64,000 nucleotides of DNA, taken from a virus. Location of the stretch: the IMG/VR virus record IMGVR_UViG_3300031132_000002. One strand, 5' to 3'. Positions within the stretch are counted from its first letter, which is position 1, and every line of letters begins with the position of its first letter. The position numbers and the translations under genes were made by a program. Under the pieces are notes generated by a model that saw nothing but the letters and a program-made list of their open reading frames with translations, did not search any database and was not told the DNA's origin. Below, in pieces: positions 2,878 through 44,283 of the stretch.

Positions 2878-3085
2878 CTTCTGGTGTAACTCGACTCAGG
2901 TTTTCTTCGTGCAGGTATACTTCTTTGTAACCATCAACAGGGCAATCGTAGATGCAAAACCATACAGGGTTTTCATCGATGCGGTGCTGGACGTGAACTG
3001 TAGCTCCCATTGGGTACTCAGCATCTAGCCCAAACACAATTGCAACACAACCACCAAACACACAATCACCACTAACTGCTCTCAT
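2825..3085 (-). CDS. hypothetical protein
   Basis: ORF with AGGAGG SD. Confidence 0.65.
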   Translation of the reverse strand: MRAVSGDCVFGGCVAIVFGLDAEYPMGATVHVQHRIDENPVWFCIYDCPVDGYKEVYLHEENLSRVTPEDEDTIERYWGSNGGVYA

Positions 3086-3140
3086 ATTTCCTCCTAATGT
3101 AAAAAAGCCTACCGAAGTAGGCTATCAAATATTTTGCTAA

Positions 3141-3338
3141 TTAGCAACCACTATCTTCCCAATACTCTTCTGAGGACTCCCACCAATCTTCGGGGTCTTC
3201 TTCCACAGCAGGACGAGGAACGTTTACGACAACTTCAACACCACCTTCCAAGACAAAAGTATTTCGTCCTTCTGTCAGGTCAGGAGTGATTGAGTTGATA
3301 GCATCCTGGACAATCTTGCGGTTTTTACTAGTAGACAT
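3141..3338 (-). CDS. hypothetical protein, acidic WxxSxxxWxxSxC tail
   Basis: ORF coupled to upstream gene; followed by hairpin terminator at about 3100-3123. Confidence 0.65.
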   Translation of the reverse strand: MSTSKNRKIVQDAINSITPDLTEGRNTFVLEGGVEVVVNVPRPAVEEDPEDWWESSEEYWEDSGC

Positions 3339-3880
3339 TAATTACCTCCAATAATATTGATAATATGTTCTGGTAGCTCCTTTGTGGATAAACCAGAGTG
3401 GGTTAAGTTGTGATATGGTACACCAAGTTCTTCAAGAACGTCAATGAAAATTTTATCTAATTGCTTAGCTTCTTCTTCGGTTTGACTTCTACCGTAACCC
3501 TCATACTTTGCTTTACGCGGTAACATAATAACTGTGTTATCATACTCCCTGAAAAGTTGGAGAATCAGATTATCCAACACACTCGGTGTATTGTAGAAAC
3601 GATTGTACACGATACCATTAAGAAGACAAGCATCACTGATAACGAAATCAACTTTACCGATAAGACGATGTAGGGCGTGATTTTGAGTTGCGGTGAGAAG
3701 CAACTGATCTTGTAACATACCTTTGTTCTCATCGTATACGGCATCTTTAATAACCTCTGTTACCAACTCCACCTTGTAGGTCTGATCCAACTTCATATGA
3801 TGGAAGATACCAGCGGCTGTTGTTGACTTACCAGCACCTGGGCCTGCTACAAGAGATATTACTTTAGTTTGCTTCGTCAT
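3338..3880 (-). CDS. P-loop kinase/ATPase, NadR/Ttd14 (AAA_28)-like
   Basis: Walker A GPGAGKST; ELVTEVIKD; VISD; RSQTEEEA lid motif. Confidence 0.75.
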   Translation of the reverse strand: MTKQTKVISLVAGPGAGKSTTAAGIFHHMKLDQTYKVELVTEVIKDAVYDENKGMLQDQLLLTATQNHALHRLIGKVDFVISDACLLNGIVYNRFYNTPSVLDNLILQLFREYDNTVIMLPRKAKYEGYGRSQTEEEAKQLDKIFIDVLEELGVPYHNLTHSGLSTKELPEHIINIIGGN

Positions 3881-9043: not shown

Positions 9044-9688
9044 TCAGCCAACAGGCTCTTGGCTTCCTGTGGAAGGTTCAGGATCTGTTGTGCTTGCGGG
9101 TACAAAGATGTTTTCTGGTGTTCCAAGTGGGACTCCTGTTTTGATTAGGTTCATTAAGTCTTCCTTGCTCATTGATTGCATAACTTCATCCGTAAGTTCT
9201 ACTTTCTTGTCTTCTGGAAGTATTACTTCGAAGAATGTTGCTCCACCGGAGTATGCGTCTCTAAACTTAGCTACATCCATAGCTCGTTCTGGGGTTGCTC
9301 CAGCATCTAGTGCTGCCAAGGCATAGTCACTACCACTACCCACTGAATAATAATCCGTATCAATAGGATATGCTCGGGAAGGATCATTACCCTCGTGAAG
9401 ATATATCTCACCGTCAGGATGAACAACAAGAGCAACAAACTCTTCATCTTCTTTCTCTGGGTCAGTTTCCATAACCAAGGAAGGAAGTTCATCTTGCAGT
9501 CTTTCTGCCTTAATCTTCTGCTCCATCCAATCGAAGAATGTTAGGATAGAAGAAAGACGACCTGCACCACCGACAAGGTAGCCTTCAATCTTTCTTACTT
9601 TCTTGAAGTTGATGCTGTCCACACGACTATCGACAGTCACCATTCCATCACTATAAATTGCATCTCTGGTTGCAATAATTGTAGTCAT
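9044..9688 (-). CDS. HslV/proteasome-beta-like Ntn hydrolase
   Basis: N-terminal MTTIIA..SD, K-V, SVGSGSDYALAALDAGA, D..SGG. Confidence 0.85.
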   Translation of the reverse strand: MTTIIATRDAIYSDGMVTVDSRVDSINFKKVRKIEGYLVGGAGRLSSILTFFDWMEQKIKAERLQDELPSLVMETDPEKEDEEFVALVVHPDGEIYLHEGNDPSRAYPIDTDYYSVGSGSDYALAALDAGATPERAMDVAKFRDAYSGGATFFEVILPEDKKVELTDEVMQSMSKEDLMNLIKTGVPLGTPENIFVPASTTDPEPSTGSQEPVG

Positions 9689-9697
9689 TATTCCTCC

Positions 9698-10198
9698 TTA
9701 GTTTTCGTAATAGGTTTTAATCAAGTCCCTTCCACCGGAGGAATGCACGGAAAGATACTCTATAGCTCTCAACGTCTCTTTGTCTACCATCAAGGTAGTT
9801 GACTGCACCAACTGATGCTTGAACATATCACTACAATCACGCACGATTACTGCTTTACGATAGAAAACGTAACTCAGGAAGAGACGCTTAGCTTCTTCTG
9901 CACTGATTAAGAGTAGTTCAGGCTCAGATGTAGCAATATCAATGACACATTGAATCAAGTCACCCTTTGTCCCTGATAGCTTCTGATAAACACCCTCAAA
10001 ATATTCGTTGGTAAACAGCGCAGATACGACTTGAAATGGAGAAACACATTCTAACCTAAGTTGTACCTCTTTTGCAAGCAAATCCATAAAGATTTGTCTA
10101 AATTCATTAGGCTTCACCATACCAGCCTGATAGCAAGCCTCAATACCACTACGATCAATCTCAACTAACTGCATATGCTCTCCTTTTAGATAGGGCAT
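9698..10198 (-). CDS. hypothetical protein
   Basis: ORF; likely start MQLVEI after AAGGAG. Confidence 0.65.
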   Translation of the reverse strand: MPYLKGEHMQLVEIDRSGIEACYQAGMVKPNEFRQIFMDLLAKEVQLRLECVSPFQVVSALFTNEYFEGVYQKLSGTKGDLIQCVIDIATSEPELLLISAEEAKRLFLSYVFYRKAVIVRDCSDMFKHQLVQSTTLMVDKETLRAIEYLSVHSSGGRDLIKTYYEN

Positions 10199-10213: not shown

Positions 10214-10948
10214 TTAATAAAGTTCTGTGACGTACTGAGATAGACGTGAACGCTGGTTGTCCTCAGAGTCCAGGGTAATATACCCGATAAAGTCTTCCTT
10301 TGGAACTCCATCTTCGGTTACTCTACTTACAAAATCAGCCAGACCATTTTTACGGTTCTTGACTGCGTAGGTTTGACTAACATCACCAATCAGCACCACC
10401 TTCGTATCCTCTCCAGTACGCTCCAGCAGGAGTTTAATGGTTTGTGGAGACATAAGCTGGCTCTCGTCAATAATTACAATGGAGTGATCCCAAGTTGCGC
10501 CCAGCGCATAGTTTGGAACTTCCAGTTCAATCTTACCGTTAGCAATATCTGTTTCCAGTTTACCTGGAGACATAAAGCTGTGGAAGATTCTTTTTGTTGA
10601 AGCATAGTGGGCTGCAAGTTTATCCTTCTTGTCTCCCGAAAGGAATCCAATCTGGTCGTCACCAACTTCGGCAGGGTTTTTCAGGAAGATAATTCTCCGT
10701 GTGTCGCCTTGCTTTAGTTTATTGATTGCTGCCCATAGTGCGGTAGAGGTCTTGCCTGTTCCAGCTTTACCGTTTACAACAGTTAAATCGTTCCACTGCA
10801 TACTTTGAACAATCTGATTCTGCTTTTCTGTAGGAACAAAGTTCCCCAGCTTATAATCTGTCGTGGCTTCTGGATTCTTCTCTTGATATTTACTGCGAGG
10901 TGCGGAGGTATCAAAAGATTTACTAGACTTACGGCTACTCTTTCCCAT
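10214..10948 (-). CDS. phoH: PhoH-like ATPase
   Basis: GKAGTGKT, IGFLSGD, IIDESQ, LLERTGE, GDVSQ, RSRL. Confidence 0.92.
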   Translation of the reverse strand: MGKSSRKSSKSFDTSAPRSKYQEKNPEATTDYKLGNFVPTEKQNQIVQSMQWNDLTVVNGKAGTGKTSTALWAAINKLKQGDTRRIIFLKNPAEVGDDQIGFLSGDKKDKLAAHYASTKRIFHSFMSPGKLETDIANGKIELEVPNYALGATWDHSIVIIDESQLMSPQTIKLLLERTGEDTKVVLIGDVSQTYAVKNRKNGLADFVSRVTEDGVPKEDFIGYITLDSEDNQRSRLSQYVTELY

Positions 10949-30670: not shown

Positions 30671-31795
30671 TTAGTTTAAGGCATTACCTGCCTTTTCAAC
30701 ATAATTTAGAATCGTCTTAGAACGTTTCTCCAGCGGAGAAGAATTAAACACCTCAGACGGTTCTTTGTTTAGCTTTCTTGCTTGGAACAGTAACCAAGAA
30801 AAAGAAAGATCCTTGACAACGATAGCGAATTTCTTCTGCTCTTCAATGTCTTTAGCTACGTGCCACATAGCATCCGCTTGGTTGATAATCCAAGACTTAG
30901 CTTGAATCACAGGATCGAAATACTTCTTATCTTCTGGGAAGTAAGCCAAATACTCATCTTCTTCGCCAACAGCCACCAGATCTACAATTCGTTTCAGTGA
31001 TGGGATACCATTACCACGTAGATGATGAACAGCCACGTATGCTGGAGATTTAACTTTGCACACAGGGATGCCATCTTGATAAACAACATAACCTTCTGCC
31101 AAGTTAGGAAGTTTCTCTGCTGTCTCCTTACAGGCTTGAGCACTATCAAACTTATACTTCTTAACGTCAAGCCAGTTCATAACCCATAAAGAGTTACCTG
31201 GCACTGTTACATATTCGCCAGTATCATTCCGACGAGCACCTAAGAAGTGGAGATCATAACCCTCATATACCGTGACAACTCGGTTTTCACGACAAGTAAG
31301 TTCCAGGAGATATGTTACTCCACGGTCAAGGTCAGCCAGTTCTGCTGACGCCTCTACTTCTTCCATATAGTTAGCGTCAGAAGCTTTTACGCACAGATCG
31401 TGAAATGTGTATTCACTATTCATACATTGACTTTCAGCGAAGGCAGTACCACGAGTGGAGAAATGCCAAGCATCATTCCAATAATACAGCTTGATCAAGC
31501 TACCATCAATCTTATCTGCAATCTCCGCTATATCCCAATCTAAATGCGCCTGTGTCTCCGGCGCTTCATTGAGGTTGAAGAATCGGTCAAATGCACGAGC
31601 AACTACATTAAACTCCCTGTCGAGGATAAGTGCTCGGCACTCCATAACCAGAGGGTGCGTTTTAGGGCTATCGATCTGATCGTAGTTCAGGACATAAAGC
31701 CCTTCTTCTGGATACTCTTTCACCTTGATACCAGTAGATAAGGTTAACAGCGTCAGTGAGTTACCAGGTGTTTTCAGGAAGTCTGTTACTTGCAT
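30671..31795 (-). CDS. RNA ligase 1 (T4 Rnl1-like)
   Basis: ECRALIL, FDRFFNLNE, KIDGSLI, LLEL, EGYVV, KVKS..Y. Confidence 0.9.
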   Translation of the reverse strand: MQVTDFLKTPGNSLTLLTLSTGIKVKEYPEEGLYVLNYDQIDSPKTHPLVMECRALILDREFNVVARAFDRFFNLNEAPETQAHLDWDIAEIADKIDGSLIKLYYWNDAWHFSTRGTAFAESQCMNSEYTFHDLCVKASDANYMEEVEASAELADLDRGVTYLLELTCRENRVVTVYEGYDLHFLGARRNDTGEYVTVPGNSLWVMNWLDVKKYKFDSAQACKETAEKLPNLAEGYVVYQDGIPVCKVKSPAYVAVHHLRGNGIPSLKRIVDLVAVGEEDEYLAYFPEDKKYFDPVIQAKSWIINQADAMWHVAKDIEEQKKFAIVVKDLSFSWLLFQARKLNKEPSEVFNSSPLEKRSKTILNYVEKAGNALN

Positions 31796-31808
31796 TTTAA
31801 TTCTCCTC

Positions 31809-32831
31809 TTACAGTTTAGCCATATACCATTTACGAGATTTGTCAGAGATATTCTTACCAACATCTTTCATCGTCAAGCTGGATGCTTCCATAACATCAC
31901 CTTCTTCTTTAAGAATATCGGTGCTCATCCACTTAACAAACTCGCCAATCTTAGTCTTATCAAGGCCAACTTCACCCAGAGCCTGATTCAGGCGATTTTC
32001 AGTAACAGCGTATTCTACAAACTCTGTGATGTTTGCCATACGTTCTGGGTCAACACTGGCTAAGGTTTTGACCTTAGAGACAGAATGCTTATCACCTTTG
32101 ACTTTAAACCATAGTCCTGAATCAAGAGCTAAAGATTCATCTGCTGGTGTCCAAACAAAACCTTCACCGATACCGGAGATACCAAAGAACTTACCAACTG
32201 GACATTCTTTTTCAGCCTCTTCGGTGATCTGTACAAGCGTGTTCTGAATCAACTCTGGTTTTTCAAAGTCAATGTTCAGTGTGACGAAACCAAACTGCAA
32301 CACGTTAAAGATACGTGCTTCATTGTCATTTACGCTACCAATGATACCAGTAGGAAGCCATTTCAGACCACCGTTAGGGCGTTCACCAACCGCTACGCGG
32401 AACACAGTGAAGAAAGGATCTAGCTCAGTTACAGCAACACCTTTCTGGATGCCACGGCCTGCCCATTCGCCAGCGATTTCAACAGGGAACTCAAATGTGA
32501 TACCTTTCTCTTCACAGATATCTTTCACTTGGCCCAGAAGTTTAGCCATATCTTTCCGATGCATAAATGCTGCAAACCCAGCGTTGTCTTTACCGATATC
32601 CACCTGCTGCGCTTTAGACTGGAAGATAAACTCATCTTCTGAGCGGAACAGTACGCTACCATTTGTACCGTGGATTTTAACCGTACCGACATAAGGGATG
32701 ACGTAAGTTTCTGGAATCTTAGTGACGTGCTCCTGAGTTTCAGGATTGTAATGATCATACTCAAGTTGAGTTTTCATTGTACGTACAACCTGACGGAATT
32801 GATTTGTGCTCGGGTATTTTACATTGCTCAT
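31809..32831 (-). CDS. RNA ligase 2-family protein
   Basis: KYPS, VKIHGTN, GEWAG.GIQKG, EGFVW, FKVK. Confidence 0.85.
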   Translation of the reverse strand: MSNVKYPSTNQFRQVVRTMKTQLEYDHYNPETQEHVTKIPETYVIPYVGTVKIHGTNGSVLFRSEDEFIFQSKAQQVDIGKDNAGFAAFMHRKDMAKLLGQVKDICEEKGITFEFPVEIAGEWAGRGIQKGVAVTELDPFFTVFRVAVGERPNGGLKWLPTGIIGSVNDNEARIFNVLQFGFVTLNIDFEKPELIQNTLVQITEEAEKECPVGKFFGISGIGEGFVWTPADESLALDSGLWFKVKGDKHSVSKVKTLASVDPERMANITEFVEYAVTENRLNQALGEVGLDKTKIGEFVKWMSTDILKEEGDVMEASSLTMKDVGKNISDKSRKWYMAKL

Positions 32832-32832
32832 A

Positions 32833-33747
32833 TTAATTTCCTCCTACTTCGTGATGATCCCAGCTAACAATGCGTTTATTAGCCATAACTTTTCCTACTT
32901 CTGCCATAGAGACAGGGCGTAGGGATTTGGTGATACCTACAGTAGCATCTACTCCAACATCCATTGCCTTGCCCATATGTTGTTCCATTGCATTGCTACC
33001 GTGACAGTGACCAAACAGGTGCCAACTGTCTTTATGCATATCATCCCAACTTAAGATTGGGAAGTGACACATAGCAATCTTCTGCCCGTTCAGTGTAGTG
33101 CAAAAATAACTGCTGTCAACAAACTTTTGCTTAGGTAGGTTTACATCATAGTATTCCCACTCTTTTTCGCTGACGTGATTACCTTTCAGATGAATAATAA
33201 AACCGTTCAACTGCTCAAGTAGTTTCAAGCCTTTCGTCATACTACCAAGAGTGAGATCTCCCAGGTCAAACACTAAATCGTTAGGCTTCACCTGTTTATT
33301 CCACTCGTCGATAATCAACTGGTGCATCGTATCAATATCCGCAATGTGTTCGCGGTTATGTCGCAAAATGTTCTTATGAAGAAAGTGAACATCAGATACG
33401 AAGTGTACATTATCTTCCGAATAATGCAAGTCTTTCATTTGGTTTTTACGCAGAGCCTGTCTTTCTACATCAACAGCTTTTGCCCAATAAACATTACCTT
33501 TGATATAACCAAACCAAGGATAAATCCTGGCTAAGATAGGGCGACGACTTGGCTTACGGCCTGTTGACACGTAAAAATCAAACAATTCGTCAAAGATATC
33601 TCCGTCAAAGGACACCATCTCTTCGAAGATCATTACTGGAACCTTTCCAGTGAAAAGAGCCTTTCGTGCTAATACACGATCCATAGGTTCTTGTAGCTCT
33701 TCTCGGTAAGCCCTGAGGTAATCTAGTTTAATACTCACATCAGACAT
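32833..33747 (-). CDS. calcineurin-like metallophosphoesterase with N-terminal extension
   Basis: SDVHFLH, LGDL, GNH, CHFP, GHCH, DVGVD. Confidence 0.88.
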   Translation of the reverse strand: MSDVSIKLDYLRAYREELQEPMDRVLARKALFTGKVPVMIFEEMVSFDGDIFDELFDFYVSTGRKPSRRPILARIYPWFGYIKGNVYWAKAVDVERQALRKNQMKDLHYSEDNVHFVSDVHFLHKNILRHNREHIADIDTMHQLIIDEWNKQVKPNDLVFDLGDLTLGSMTKGLKLLEQLNGFIIHLKGNHVSEKEWEYYDVNLPKQKFVDSSYFCTTLNGQKIAMCHFPILSWDDMHKDSWHLFGHCHGSNAMEQHMGKAMDVGVDATVGITKSLRPVSMAEVGKVMANKRIVSWDHHEVGGN

Positions 33748-37166: not shown

Positions 37167-37383
37167 GATTGAACACAAAAGCCCTACAGTGAAAGAGAAG
37201 TTAAATCGAATTAAGTCAGGTTCTGTTTTCCTGATGGATAACGATTTTTATATCAAGTCGGATGAGACGGACGGATATGGTGATCCGCAATGTGTTCGCC
37301 TACGAGATGGCTGTCTTGTGTCACCAGACGAAGAAATGATTGTCCAGGTAGCAAATTCTGTTAAGATGGAGGTGTCATTATGA
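37159..37383 (+). CDS. hypothetical protein (paralog of previous gene)
   Basis: Shared motif pattern; GGAGG SD. Confidence 0.75.
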   Translation: MIEIEHKSPTVKEKLNRIKSGSVFLMDNDFYIKSDETDGYGDPQCVRLRDGCLVSPDEEMIVQVANSVKMEVSL

Positions 37384-38270
37384 GAATCACAATCCGCACT
37401 ATGTTAGGATTTAATCTTCAAAGTATCGAATGCCCGATTAAGAGTTTCACTTTCTCGGCTGGTGAGCAGCACGTAGTATTACCGAAAACACTTCAAGATA
37501 TCAGTTATGGCGATGAAGTGGTGATTGAAACTGAGATTCGTAGCGCAGAAGACTTTATGTTACTGGCTATGGTGAAAGACGCTATAACCCGCTGTGCGCA
37601 CTTCCACATTCCAGTTAAGCTGATTATGCTTTACGTTCCTTACGGTCGTCAGGATCGTGCCTGTGAAGCAGGAGAGGCATTCGGGCTTAAGGCTTTTGCT
37701 TCTATGCTTAACGCCTTGAAGTTTGACGAGGTTGTGATTGCTGATCCTCACAGTGATGTTACTCCGGCTCTGATTGAACGACTGACAGTTATCCCCCAGG
37801 AAGAGATTGTTAAGCAGATGCTTGGCGTTTACATTCCTAAAGAAGATTTCGCTATCGTTTCTCCTGATGCCGGAGCGTTGAAGAAAATCTTCAAGGTTGC
37901 TAAGGAATTAGGTGGTGTTGATGTGTATTGCGCAGAGAAGATTCGTGATACATCTACTGGTGCAATCAAACATACAGATATCTCTGTCAAAGATTTTAAA
38001 GGTCAGAATCTGATTATGGTGGATGATATCTGTGATGGCGGCTACACCTTCATTAAGCTGGCAGAACTGCTTCGAAGCCGCAACGCAGGACGTATCGATT
38101 TATACGTCACACACGGTATCTTCTCTAAAGGCTTACGTCCTCTAGAAGGAACTATTGATCGGGTTCACTCTCTCAACGTCTGGAAAGACAACATTGAAGC
38201 TGATCAGGATATCTTAGTGTTGAACCAAGGTATCAGTCGCAAAGTTTTACTGTCAAAATACTACAACTAA
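37380..38270 (+). CDS. ribose-phosphate pyrophosphokinase-like protein (probable ADPR-PP synthetase, Adps)
   Basis: FSAGEQHV, YVPYGRQDR, DPHS, SPDAGA, VDDICDGGYTF, VTHGIFS; adjacent to NAMPT-like gene. Confidence 0.9.
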   Translation: MRITIRTMLGFNLQSIECPIKSFTFSAGEQHVVLPKTLQDISYGDEVVIETEIRSAEDFMLLAMVKDAITRCAHFHIPVKLIMLYVPYGRQDRACEAGEAFGLKAFASMLNALKFDEVVIADPHSDVTPALIERLTVIPQEEIVKQMLGVYIPKEDFAIVSPDAGALKKIFKVAKELGGVDVYCAEKIRDTSTGAIKHTDISVKDFKGQNLIMVDDICDGGYTFIKLAELLRSRNAGRIDLYVTHGIFSKGLRPLEGTIDRVHSLNVWKDNIEADQDILVLNQGISRKVLLSKYYN

Positions 38271-38333
38271 GTATTGACAATAAGAAGGGAGGGTGTAGAC
38301 TCTCCCATATCAAAAACAAAGAGGAGAACAATT

Positions 38334-40037
38334 ATGGCTAAGCGCATTAAAAACCCACTGTTTAACACTGACGGCTACAAACCATCTCACATCGATCAGT
38401 ATGCCGATAATATGGATACGCTGTTTTCAAACTTCACTCCTCGTGGTGATAAGTATTTCACACACTACGCACCAAACGCACCGCGTGGCGTTATCTCTGC
38501 TGGTGTTCAGGGTGTTCTCAAAGAACGTCTGATTGACGACTGGAACGAAAACTTCTTCTCTCGTCCGAAGGATGAAGTGGTGGCTGAGTACTCGAAGTTT
38601 ATGACTCGTTACAACGGACGCCAGAACCGAACTGATCATATTGAAGCACTGCACGATTTGGGTTATCTGCCTCTATCAGTACGTGCGTTGCCGGAAGGTG
38701 TTCTGTGTCCTATCCAGGTTCCAGTGTATACAATTCACAATACCGTTAAAGGCTTTGCGTGGTTGGTGAACTATCTGGAAACTATGCTGAGTGCAGAAAC
38801 TTGGAAGACAATGAATAACGCAACCATTGCTTTCCAGTACCGCCTGCTTGGTGAACAGTACGCAGATTTGACCTGTGATTCTAAAGATCACCTAGCATTC
38901 CAGTTCCACGACTTCTCTGCTCGTGGTTTGTCTGGTATCGATGACGGATATCGCTCTGGCTTTGGTCACTTAATGTCATTCAAAGGTACTGATACTCTTC
39001 GTGCTGTTTGCTACGTAGATGATTTCTACTACGGAGAAGATACTTTTGTTGCTGGGAGCATTCCTGCATCTGAGCACAGTGTTGCAACAACTAATATTAG
39101 TGATATTCTCGCTAAACTGATGGTTGAAGTTGACGGCTTCGCAGCAATGAACATTGATGAACAACGATTCTTCTCTGAACTGGAGTTCTTGCGTAAATAT
39201 CTGACTCAGATTTACCCTGATGGCATTGTGTCTTATGTGGCAGACAGCTACGACTATTGGGCGCTGGTTACTGAGATCCTTCCAGTTCTGAAACAAGAGA
39301 TTATGGAACGAGATGGTAAACTGGTAATTCGTCCAGATAGCGGCAAGCCCCTGCATATTATCTGTGGATACTATGTTGAGACCTTTGCTTCTCGTGAGAT
39401 CTTTGAAAACTCAAGTCGTGCTCTTCTCACCGAAGTTGCATACATCGCAGATGAACAAGTTTACCTGCGTATTCAGGACAACGAGCAGTATGGTTACGAA
39501 GAGTACGTGGAGATTCCTCGTCACGAGGCCGTAGGTACTATCCAGGTGTTGTGGGAAGAGTTTGGTGGTAAAATCAACTCTAAGGGCTATAAAGAGTTAG
39601 ATTCTCATATTGGACTGATTTACGGCGATAGCATCACTGTTTCTCTGACCAAAGAGATCTTTAAGCGCCTGGAAGGAAATGGTTTTGCATCAAGTAACAT
39701 TGTTCTGGGTGTTGGTAGCTATACTTACAACTACAGCACTCGTGATACCTTCGGGTTTGCTTGTAAAGCTACAGGTTGTGTTATTGATGGTAACGAGATT
39801 CTTGTGAGCAAAGAGCCGAAGACTGATCCAGGTAAACGTTCTGCTCGTGGATTCTTAGCTGTTGTGGCAAATCCAGAAGGTGATTTGACTCTTGAAGATG
39901 GTTTGTCTTTGTCAGACGTTTCTCACCCTAAGAACGAATTGCTGGAAGTTTTCCGTGATAGTCTGATGGTGATTGATACTAATATTGATGAAGTACGAGC
40001 CACACTGGACGATACGGTACGTAAATATCTTAAATAA
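38334..40037 (+). CDS. nicotinamide phosphoribosyltransferase-like protein (probable Namat)
   Basis: TDGYK.SH, HDFSARG, GTDT, PASEHSV, DSYD, RPDSG, LIYGDSIT, RDTFGFA.KA; start after GAGGAG; own TTGACA promoter at 38274. Confidence 0.92.
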   Translation: MAKRIKNPLFNTDGYKPSHIDQYADNMDTLFSNFTPRGDKYFTHYAPNAPRGVISAGVQGVLKERLIDDWNENFFSRPKDEVVAEYSKFMTRYNGRQNRTDHIEALHDLGYLPLSVRALPEGVLCPIQVPVYTIHNTVKGFAWLVNYLETMLSAETWKTMNNATIAFQYRLLGEQYADLTCDSKDHLAFQFHDFSARGLSGIDDGYRSGFGHLMSFKGTDTLRAVCYVDDFYYGEDTFVAGSIPASEHSVATTNISDILAKLMVEVDGFAAMNIDEQRFFSELEFLRKYLTQIYPDGIVSYVADSYDYWALVTEILPVLKQEIMERDGKLVIRPDSGKPLHIICGYYVETFASREIFENSSRALLTEVAYIADEQVYLRIQDNEQYGYEEYVEIPRHEAVGTIQVLWEEFGGKINSKGYKELDSHIGLIYGDSITVSLTKEIFKRLEGNGFASSNIVLGVGSYTYNYSTRDTFGFACKATGCVIDGNEILVSKEPKTDPGKRSARGFLAVVANPEGDLTLEDGLSLSDVSHPKNELLEVFRDSLMVIDTNIDEVRATLDDTVRKYLK

Positions 40038-43615: not shown

Positions 43616-43691
43616 GCTTGTATAGCTCAGTAGGTAGAGCAGTTGCCTTGTAAGCATCAGGTCACGAGTTCGATTCTTGTTGCAAGCACCA
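43616..43691 (+). tRNA. tRNA-Thr(TGT)
   Basis: GTTGC-CT TGT AA-GCATC; CCA. Confidence 0.92.
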
Positions 43692-43705: not shown

Positions 43706-43756
43706 CGCGCCTGATGAGTCTTTGAAATAAGACGAAACGCTGTGAAGCGTAGCGCG
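43706..43756 (+). ncRNA. type I hammerhead ribozyme (predicted cleavage after GUA, position 43751)
   Basis: Stem I CGCGC/GCGCG; core CTGATGA; stem II GTCTT-TGAAAT-AAGAC; GAAA; stem III CGCT-GTGA-AGCG; U16.1-A17. Confidence 0.9.
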
Positions 43757-43767
43757 GAGTATCCCAA

Positions 43768-43876
43768 GAAGGGGAATAACTGGATACCAGTAGAGACTTC
43801 TCTAAGTATTTTCCAACGAGAATATTTAGAGCGTGGGTGTGCAATGTCTCTATATGCAGCACACAGCTAGCCCTTC
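43768..43876 (+). ncRNA. putative pseudoknotted structured RNA
   Basis: GAAGGG/CCCTTC; ACTGG-ATA-CCAGT; AGAGAC/GTCTCT; 14-bp hairpin 43800-43831; crossing pair GTGTGC/GCACAC. Confidence 0.6.
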
Positions 43877-43882
43877 AACATT

Positions 43883-43959
43883 GCGAGTTTAACTCAGTCT
43901 GGTAGAGTGTCTGCCTTCCAAGCAGTTCGTCATCGGTTCGAATCCGATATCTCGCTCCA
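43883..43959 (+). tRNA. tRNA-Gly(TCC)
   Basis: CTGC-CT TCC AA-GCAG; U73; CCA. Confidence 0.92.
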
Positions 43960-43965
43960 AATTAT

Positions 43966-44053
43966 ATCGTGGTATACAAATTGGCCTAAGTAACCAGACT
44001 TTCAATCTGGCGCAGTTTTCTGCTTACGGGTTCGAATCCCGTCCACGATACCA
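43966..44053 (+). tRNA. type II tRNA with TTC (Glu) anticodon on a Leu-like body
   Basis: ATCGTGG/CCACGAT-A-CCA; CCAGA-CT TTC AA-TCTGG; variable arm GCAG-TTTT-CTGC. Confidence 0.8.
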
Positions 44054-44058
44054 AAAAA

Positions 44059-44130
44059 GAAGCTATAGTTTAATGCAAAACTTGTCACTTCCGAGATTGA
44101 CAAATGAAGATTTATCTTCTAGCTTCACCA
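44059..44130 (+). ncRNA. degenerate tRNA-like RNA
   Basis: GAAGCTA/TAGCTTC-A-CCA; D arm GTTT/AAAC; TTGTCA-10-nt loop-TGACAA; T arm GAAGA-TTTA-TCTTC lacking TTC. Confidence 0.65.
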
Positions 44131-44136
44131 AATTAT

Positions 44137-44283
44137 CGGATAGATGCAATATGAAAGTGCAGCGTTAGGGTTCGCAAGTTGGCGCTTGTTTGACTAACAA
44201 AACATAATTAGTATGGGCATTTCAAGAATACATAGCCTCGCCAAAGGAGATGTAAGAAGGTTCGACTCCTTCCTGTTCGCCCA
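44137..44283 (+). ncRNA. tRNA-like RNA (~147 nt) with multi-stem insert
   Basis: CGGATAG/CTGTTCG-C-CCA; GAAGG-TTCGACT-CCTTC T arm; internal hairpins. Confidence 0.65.

Follow-up and report, generated by a model that had tools for sequence, protein, structure and literature searches.

Organization of the locus

The stretch of viral DNA analysed here (IMG/VR record IMGVR_UViG_3300031132_000002; 64,000 nucleotides (nt), called the window below) carries on its + strand a phage-type array of 17 tRNA genes, predicted by ARAGORN at 42.3–45.8 kb. This work concerns an RNA encoded inside that array, at positions 43752–43882, between a hammerhead ribozyme and the gene for tRNA-Gly(UCC). Comparison of its homologs indicates that this RNA is a nested double pseudoknot with a core of about 100 nt, because a helix P1 crosses a stem A and a helix E crosses a stem C, and it appears to represent a new class, an RNA family not described so far. 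The window also encodes proteins of large tailed phages (a T4-type terminase, a Mu-type portal and a major head protein), a ribonucleotide reductase, a NAPRTase and a PRPP-synthetase-like protein. Its DNA recurs mostly in phyllosphere and plant metagenome runs, and a 141-kb viral contig (L010) is a close relative of the window phage in which the arrangement is identical.

The hammerhead starts 14 nt past the end of tRNA-Thr. It has the CUGANGA...GAAA core, here CUGAUGA at 43711–43717 and GAAA at 43734–43737, and three stems: stem I (CGCGC/GCGCG, 5' strand at 43706–43710), stem II (GUCUU/AAGAC, 43718–43733) and stem III (43737–43750, capped by GUGA). The G10.1–C11.1 and A15.1–U16.1 pairs are present, and the cleavage triplet, GUA, is of the NUH type. 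The same consensus features are found in 39 of the 46 distinct homolog versions collected; among the homologs, covariation is seen in stem II, in stem III and at the first base of stem I. The Rfam model Hammerhead_3 recognizes 43706–43751 with 29–33 bits (E 6e-4 to 8e-6), short of the Rfam gathering score (29.1 and 33.3 bits vs 48.5 for RF00008); the open stem I, which continues into the knot, lies outside the Rfam hammerhead model. Self-cleavage after A43751 is predicted, and would leave a 2',3'-cyclic phosphate and a 5'-OH. The 3' strand of stem I consists of the first 5 nt of the 5' tail of the RNA, a tail that is equally invariant in the copies devoid of hammerhead. The letters quoted in the initial annotation of this locus, and the two flanks that it assigned to the RNA, a hammerhead cut after A43751 and tRNA-Gly at 43883, are as it described them. 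The features are listed in Table 1.

Table 1. Features of the RNA and of its immediate flanks (window coordinates)
Feature	Position	Strand	Basis
tRNA-Thr(UGU), directly upstream; 3' trailer runs into hammerhead	43616–43691	+	ARAGORN; Rfam tRNA 67.5 bits
Type I hammerhead, cut predicted after A43751	43706–43751	+	Sequence; stem covariation across homologs
5' tail GCGCGGA; first 5 nt are hammerhead stem I 3' strand	43752–43758	+	46-version table; alignment
P1 5' strand GUAUCC	43759–43764	+	Pairs with 43782–43787
Stem A 5' strand GAAGGG	43768–43773	+	Pairs with 43871–43876; compensatory changes
A-rich joining strand GAAUAACU, loop 3 of P1/A pseudoknot	43774–43781	+	Nearly invariant, 40 sequences
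P1 3' strand GGAUAC, centre of hairpin proposed in initial annotation	43782–43787	+	Covariation
Conserved CAG linker, P1 to C	43788–43790	+	Family alignment
Stem C 5' strand UAGAGAC	43791–43797	+	Pairs with 43846–43852 (7 bp)
Hairpin D, 14 bp, peripheral	43800–43831	+	Covariation; layout comparison
Invariant CGUGG	43832–43836	+	Family alignment
Crossing helix E 5' strand GUGUGC	43837–43842	+	Pairs with 43859–43864
Conserved loop AAU between E and C	43843–43845	+	Family alignment
Stem C 3' strand GUCUCUA	43846–43852	+	Compensatory changes
Conserved loop UAUGCA	43853–43858	+	Family alignment
Helix E 3' strand GCACAC	43859–43864	+	Covariation
Conserved joining strand AGCUAG (family consensus A-U/G-C-U-N-G)	43865–43870	+	Family alignment
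Stem A 3' strand CCCUUC	43871–43876	+	Compensatory changes
3' tail AACAUU, reaching predicted RNase P site	43877–43882	+	Sequence
tRNA-Gly(UCC); 5' maturation would define 3' end of RNA	43883–43959	+	ARAGORN; Rfam 60.9 bits

The RNA folds as a nested double pseudoknot

Homologs were gathered with blastn and then by pattern scans of viral and metagenome contigs; the contigs that carry the 46 versions belong to phages, prophages and metagenomes and vary in composition from AT-rich to GC-rich. In this collection the crossing helix E, which the initial annotation had proposed as GTGTGC/GCACAC and as the basis of a pseudoknot, is paired in 100% of 216 cells (36 distinct sequences) with 76 double changes, and nine different E helices were present among the first 26 versions alone. 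For helix P1, examined in 40 sequences, 98% of cells are paired and 55 double changes are counted, a result equalled by none of 500 shuffles; its compensatory variants include GGAGCC/GGCUCC, GUGGUC/GACCAC, GUUCCC/GGGAAC and GCCACC/GGUGGC. The closing stem GAAGGG/CCCTTC (stem A), the stem AGAGAC/GTCTCT (stem C, which extends to 7 bp) and the 14-bp hairpin at 43800–43831 (D, which is peripheral) had also been proposed at first and all three show compensatory changes. The fifth helix of that proposal, a hairpin ACUGG-AUA-CCAGU, has to be abandoned: in homologs fetched without fixing the 5' block, 74% of its cells are paired, which equals the shuffled mean, its covariation is zero, and its centre pairs in P1 instead. 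Four of the five helices initially drawn are thus retained, one is wrong, and the second pseudoknot, formed by P1 and A, had been overlooked.

As a control for selection bias, the helices were recounted in 35 hits obtained with a search pattern that demands no complementarity. All six pairs of E were formed in 35 of these hits, all six of P1 in 34 and all six of A in 31, while C had its seven pairs in 33. When the full model is applied to 18 front-hammerhead sequences (those in which the hammerhead precedes the RNA), 90% of cells are paired, compared with 35–46% when the partners are slid, and 32 pairs are altered on both sides, which 0 of 500 shuffles match. In addition, the single-sequence fold of 43752–43882 is better than that of shuffled sequences (z = -3.0), and the G–U pairs found in the helices are compatible with the + strand only.

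About 35 unpaired bases are conserved across AT-rich to GC-rich contigs. The family consensus reads N-CG(C/U)GGA - P1 - C-N-N - A - GAAUAAC-U - P1' - CAG - C in its 5' half and, after C, [D] - CGUGG - E - AAY - C' - URUGCA - E' - A(U/G)CUNG - A' in its 3' half. The CG(C/U)GGA segment of the 5' tail is invariant across the family, including the copies that lack a hammerhead, and stem A is followed by CAAC in most front-hammerhead lineages (CACC in L178). In other pseudoknots loop 3 lines the minor groove of the adjoining stem, and the A-rich GAAUAACU may do the same here. A tertiary pairing between the GGA of the tail and the UCU of the strand joining E to A was considered and rejected, as the AGCU variant of the window is not accompanied by a compensating change.

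The Rfam 15 covariance models return nothing beyond noise on 43752–43882, even at E<=10, which agrees with the earlier reading that this RNA has no tRNA features and belongs to no known family; no Rfam family matches the permuted or hammerhead-less copies either, and our literature searches found no description of it.

The knot exists in three layouts

The family members fall into three layouts. In the front-hammerhead layout (13 versions, including the window), the hammerhead comes first, then the RNA, and D is a closed hairpin. In the permuted layout (26 versions), the chain starts with CGUGG and continues with E, C', E', A', a short spacer, the hammerhead, CGCGGA, P1, A, P1' and C; this order is a circular permutation of the first one, with the hammerhead inside one loop. 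D is then an open helix of 9–16 bp or is absent, the latter where tRNAs abut. The remaining seven versions have the permuted order and no consensus hammerhead. Where the hammerhead would be, L130, L162 and L163 have a spacer of 3–15 nt, L161 and L173 a small hairpin in which stem I is retained, L166 a hammerhead core that has decayed and L159 a spacer of 44 nt; no replacement ribozyme class was found in these versions. The 5' and 3' flanks of the enterobacterial front-hammerhead copies pair in a covarying helix of 17 bp, P0, which encloses hammerhead and knot; L135 has a capped hairpin at the P0 position. P0, D and the hammerhead all sit in peripheral loops, and the chain can therefore open at any of them. 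Since the knot is found in permuted order and without a hammerhead, it is probably the knot, and not its flanks, that constitutes the conserved unit.

In the Pectobacterium phage Pappous (L002) the 5' flank of the hammerhead, 2990–3000 (UAACCGGCAC), and the 9 nt with which the downstream tRNA-Met begins, 3176–3184 (GUGCCGUUA), are complementary, and the P0-like pairing between them would compete with the tRNA-Met acceptor stem.

The point at which the hammerhead is grafted is constant in both hammerhead-bearing layouts, 7 nt before P1 (39 of the 46 versions), and the 3' strand of its stem I overlaps the invariant CGCGGA. These two properties, together with the tertiary contacts between stem I and stem II that fast hammerhead cleavage requires (PMC3088659), speak for a knot that would be an accessory or regulatory domain of the hammerhead, either a stabilizer or a switch, the latter amounting to a natural allosteric hammerhead. 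We regard this as unlikely. The knot is present with intact, covarying helices in copies that have no hammerhead (L130/L136, L161, L162, L163 and L173), and in the front-hammerhead copies the stems and loop II of the hammerhead vary freely, whereas the knot is nearly invariant. Furthermore, a knot of 100 nt with 35 conserved bases goes far beyond what a hammerhead needs.

Distribution and genomic context

By blastn, copies of hammerhead plus element at about 73% identity were found in taxonomically unrelated phages, lambdoid Escherichia coli prophages included. Enterobacter phage SDFMU_EhYP (Koutsourovirus) carries one in the interval that separates the gene for tail tubular protein A from a small gene located after the capsid gene. 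Others are present in Pectobacterium phages Pappous and Taid and in Dickeya phage Setonix, the Pappous copy lying directly before tRNA-Met. The full-length element occurs in 15 complete Escherichia coli genomes; in the one examined, it is unannotated and lies in the late leader of a lambdoid prophage, between the antiterminator gene Q and the holin gene. A scan of one genome per prokaryote species yielded no exact pattern match, and a scan with the 14-mer GCGCGGAGTATCCC yielded mostly chance matches in GC-rich contigs.

At 22 of 57 representative loci tRNA genes lie within 2.2 kb of the element, at 16 of them about 400 nt away or nearer, and all are on its strand. The RNA sits exactly between two tRNAs in L161, and in the permuted copies of L175 and L185 a tRNA ends 2–3 nt before CGUGG with the hammerhead still inside. 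Intrinsic terminators follow the copies of L178, L159 and L182. No recurrent neighbour protein was found: the largest cluster of neighbours accounts for 5 of the 57 loci, mostly related prophages.

Copies also exist in the leaders of late genes. The E. coli prophage copies in the Q–holin interval, the copy before the EhYP tail genes and those 35–75 nt before genes in L079 and L017 would suit a cis-acting cassette for processing and end protection, in which the hammerhead, or RNase III acting on the long P0 and D helices, would cut, and a knot with a 5'-OH would shield the neighbouring end of an mRNA or tRNA precursor. The covarying 17-bp P0 around hammerhead and knot would be in keeping with such a cassette, as would the processing of polycistronic RNAs that is ascribed to hammerheads flanking phage genes (PMC3088659). 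Nevertheless, this role seems improbable to us for the family, as in tRNA arrays (L161, L175, L185 and the window) cuts on either side would leave the RNA with no flanking transcript to protect, and as a plain hairpin would suffice for protection, yet some 35 unpaired bases are conserved in AT-rich and GC-rich contigs alike.

Several other features of these arrays deserve mention. In the window, 43966–44053 is a tRNA with a UUC (Glu) anticodon and a long variable arm (ARAGORN; Rfam 53.8 bits); such an arm is normally absent from bacterial tRNA-Glu. Positions 44059–44127 are weakly tRNA-like (Rfam 36 bits); the anticodon loop there is oversized and the T loop reduced. The stretch of about 147 nt at 44137–44283 has an acceptor-like stem and a T arm without a standard interior, and both sequences recall T4 rnaC. 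Just upstream of the array, at 37380–40037 on the + strand, the PRPP-synthetase-like and NAPRTase-family genes lie side by side and could form an NAD salvage pair. In L162, an 81.8-kb viral contig, the hammerhead-less knot RNA (9792–9887) begins 16 nt past the end of a GOLLD RNA (9282–9776, + strand; Rfam 174.5 bits for a gathering score of 150), both within an array of more than 20 tRNA genes. L161 is a 7.1-kb contig classed as viral that consists almost wholly of about 28 tRNA genes; its hammerhead-less knot RNA shares array and strand with a bacterial class A RNase P RNA (2968–3382, - strand; Rfam 266 bits). A phage-borne RNase P RNA would be unusual, and this contig might be bacterial rather than viral. 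Finally, in L187 a permuted copy with a hammerhead is followed, after about 28 nt, by an int-alpA RNA motif (10439–10506, - strand; Rfam 53.6 bits).

RtcB and RNA ligases

About 10 kb from the tRNA array, at 30671–33747 on the - strand, the window encodes a phosphoesterase (phrog_547), an Rnl2-like ligase (PF09414, phrog_548) and an Rnl1-like ligase (PF09511), a block that looks like an RNA heal-and-seal set, although no kinase domain was recognized in it. In two independent lineages, whose RtcB proteins are 42–44% identical, an RtcB gene is the immediate neighbour of the element, and in a third lineage it is 6 kb away. In addition, the ends produced by a hammerhead are those that RtcB joins. 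The RNA could then be a substrate of RNA repair ligases: a hammerhead nick in the loop closed by stem A would mimic a broken tRNA loop, to be sealed by RtcB or phage Rnl enzymes into a circular or rejoined RNA, or to titrate repair. The rest of the evidence makes this very unlikely. The RNA was found within 2.5 kb of none of 80 other phage RtcB genes, and RtcB is absent from the three records searched whole, the 141-kb relative of the window phage and a complete 48.5-kb phage, both estimated to be 96–100% complete, and the Pappous genome. The RtcB genes of L191 and L079 are 97% identical, but L191 precisely lacks the RNA, the two differing by a clean indel of about 190 nt just upstream of RtcB (2300–2520 in L191 compared with 418–640 in L079). 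Moreover, the lambdoid and Koutsourovirus stretches examined contain no annotated RNA ligase gene, and RNase P leaves a 3'-OH, which RtcB cannot join. No back-joined form appeared among the RNA-library contigs, although contigs are unable to reveal one. In conclusion, RtcB, adjoining in two lineages only, is an occasional neighbour and not a regular partner, given the 80 loci devoid of the RNA, the indel in L191 and the three records without RtcB. The comparison of L191 with L079 points to a cassette with the behaviour of a mobile indel; in L079 the gene after RtcB codes for an HNH endonuclease.

Possible function of the RNA

The interpretation that we favour, and consider somewhat probable, is that these sequences form an undescribed and widespread phage RNA family whose member in the window is cut from a tRNA precursor as a free-standing, stable RNA that acts in trans. 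The RNA would be transcribed inside the tRNA precursor, the hammerhead would release its 5' end (G43752, with a 5'-OH), and its 3' end (U43882, with a 3'-OH) would result from RNase P processing of tRNA-Gly, giving a stable product of 131 nt. Excision as a discrete RNA is plausible: because the far boundary of the element abuts a tRNA in several lineages, joint cutting by the hammerhead and RNase P is the natural reading of the arrangement. The same-strand tRNA genes nearby, the terminators behind some copies, the other stable RNAs of the arrays and the lack of a recurrent protein neighbour also speak for a free-standing RNA gene. Action in trans is favoured because the core is kept across very different base compositions, because in tRNA arrays cleavage would separate it from both neighbours, and because it has no constant protein neighbour. 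Such an RNA would not act on the genes beside it but would bind a target shared by widely different bacteria, which might be a small ligand or a conserved macromolecule of tRNA or RNA processing.

The hammerhead probably does more than trim an end, because the tRNA-flanked permuted copies of L175 and L185 keep it inside. Its stem I takes its 3' strand from the invariant CGCGGA, and cutting would release this segment, with a 5'-OH, to its place in the knot. Since the invariant CGCG of the tail is the very sequence that the hammerhead uses, cleavage could be a built-in maturation or nicking step. The initial annotation had proposed a discrete RNA excised by the hammerhead and RNase P, with a 5'-OH end that would be a substrate for the phage kinase and ligase. 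A conserved pseudoknotted unit, with the hammerhead cut as 5' boundary in 39 of the 46 versions, does emerge from the present analysis, and RNA ligases are encoded by the window phage. The hammerhead as a mere end trimmer and the 5'-OH as a universal property have to be given up, because some copies have no hammerhead and tRNA-flanked permuted copies have an internal one; the kinase of that proposal was not identified.

Several observations weigh against our interpretation. Action in trans is deduced from genomic context, and the leader copies located just before genes (L017, L079 and the E. coli prophages) would also fit a role in cis. The seven versions without a consensus hammerhead, among them the decayed core of L166, imply that a free 5'-OH cannot be essential to the function of the core. 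Conservation is partly imposed by the way homologs were collected, as some conserved segments were fixed by the search patterns: CGUGG, AAY and URUGCA in one scan, the GGAGUAUCCC and GAAUAAC blocks in others. Lastly, the RNA data consist of low-depth contigs from four RNA or possibly-RNA libraries, which cannot show ends, strand or circles, and the sole such contig over the element, a metatranscriptome contig of 155 nt (43708–43862, depth 2.2), bridges the predicted cut site; it could derive from uncut RNA or from DNA.

A more specific proposal, which we hold to be doubtful, is that this new functional RNA class has a universal target. The knot might be a domain that senses a ligand or a protein and gates the hammerhead, or else a highly expressed sponge or decoy, produced from tRNA arrays, against a conserved host defence that targets RNA or acts by signalling; the nick would then be the activation step. 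If the ligand- or protein-gated version were true, it would provide the first natural allosteric hammerhead.

The conservation of about 35 unpaired bases is unusual and typical of ribozymes and ligand-binding RNAs, which makes a new biochemical activity or a new phage–host interaction a realistic prospect. The roles of hammerheads in bacteria and phages have been unclear since they were first reported there (PMC3088659; PMC6765202), and a hammerhead wired at one fixed point into a conserved double-pseudoknot RNA offers them a specific, testable partner. The RNA is carried by phages of E. coli, Pectobacterium and Enterobacter and is thus amenable to deletion, mutation and probing in common laboratory strains.

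Comparison with known RNAs

Prophages commonly contain hammerheads, for which a role in the processing of long phage transcripts has been proposed (Perreault et al. 2011, PMC3088659). The left neighbour of our element resembles these type I hammerheads of phages and prophages (Rfam clan CL00010) in its full core, three stems and GUA triplet, but the RNA behind it is a conserved double pseudoknot of about 100 nt that also occurs in the absence of a hammerhead.

HDV-like theta ribozymes are located next to phage tRNAs (Kienbeck et al. 2024, PMC10879173), and the knot shares with them this position and a small nested double-pseudoknot fold. P1 crosses A in the strand order of P1 and P2 of HDV. 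However, P3/L3 and P1.1 are not present, the 8-nt unpaired GAAUAACU occupies the place of P3, an extra C/E pseudoknot is found, and the predicted cut lies 7 nt before P1, and would be made by a hammerhead, instead of at the 5' end of P1; the HDV models RF00094 and RF02682 do not match the element. Twister is also a double pseudoknot that is circularly permuted in nature, and differs from the knot by its other conserved bases, by the lack of any Rfam twister match and by its self-cleavage, which is not indicated in the knot. The knot thus resembles HDV-like and twister ribozymes in its nested double pseudoknot built around a compact conserved core, twister in its permutation and theta ribozymes in the proximity of tRNAs. 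These likenesses raise the possibility that it forms a ribozyme class of its own, active in self-cleavage or in another reaction, the more so as new self-cleaving classes have been found through their genomic association with hammerheads. We consider this highly improbable, as no Rfam ribozyme family matches, no conserved candidate cleavage site was recognized, and an RNA able to cut itself would not need a grafted hammerhead.

Two other families were examined and set aside. YrlA, a Y RNA, is a structured non-coding RNA that is sometimes found beside RtcB, in phages too. The element is not a Y RNA of the YrlA–Rsr system, as no TROVE/Rsr gene was found in the five records searched, the YrlA model matches only tRNAs in the window, and the element has no tRNA-like module. 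The drum motif is followed by a terminator and associated with DUF3800-type genes (PMC5737381), and this published description does not fit the element, which has no Rfam match to it.

The closest parallels in context are other RNAs of phage tRNA clusters. The species 1 and species 2 RNAs of T4 (rnaC and rnaD) are stable non-tRNA RNAs of 119–139 nt encoded in a tRNA cluster; their annotation calls them small stable RNAs and names no function. Homology was rejected, as inspection of the T4 sequences revealed no similarity and none of the conserved segments of the family, and as rnaC is tRNA-like with a T arm; they are analogues in context and not relatives. GOLLD and ROOL are likewise phage-borne, adjacent to tRNAs and rich in pseudoknots, with a role in the cell that is not established, and they are five to eight times larger than the knot RNA, to which the Rfam GOLLD model does not match. 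The RNA described here thus makes a compact addition to the few complex phage RNAs of tRNA arrays, next to rnaC and rnaD of T4, GOLLD and ROOL.

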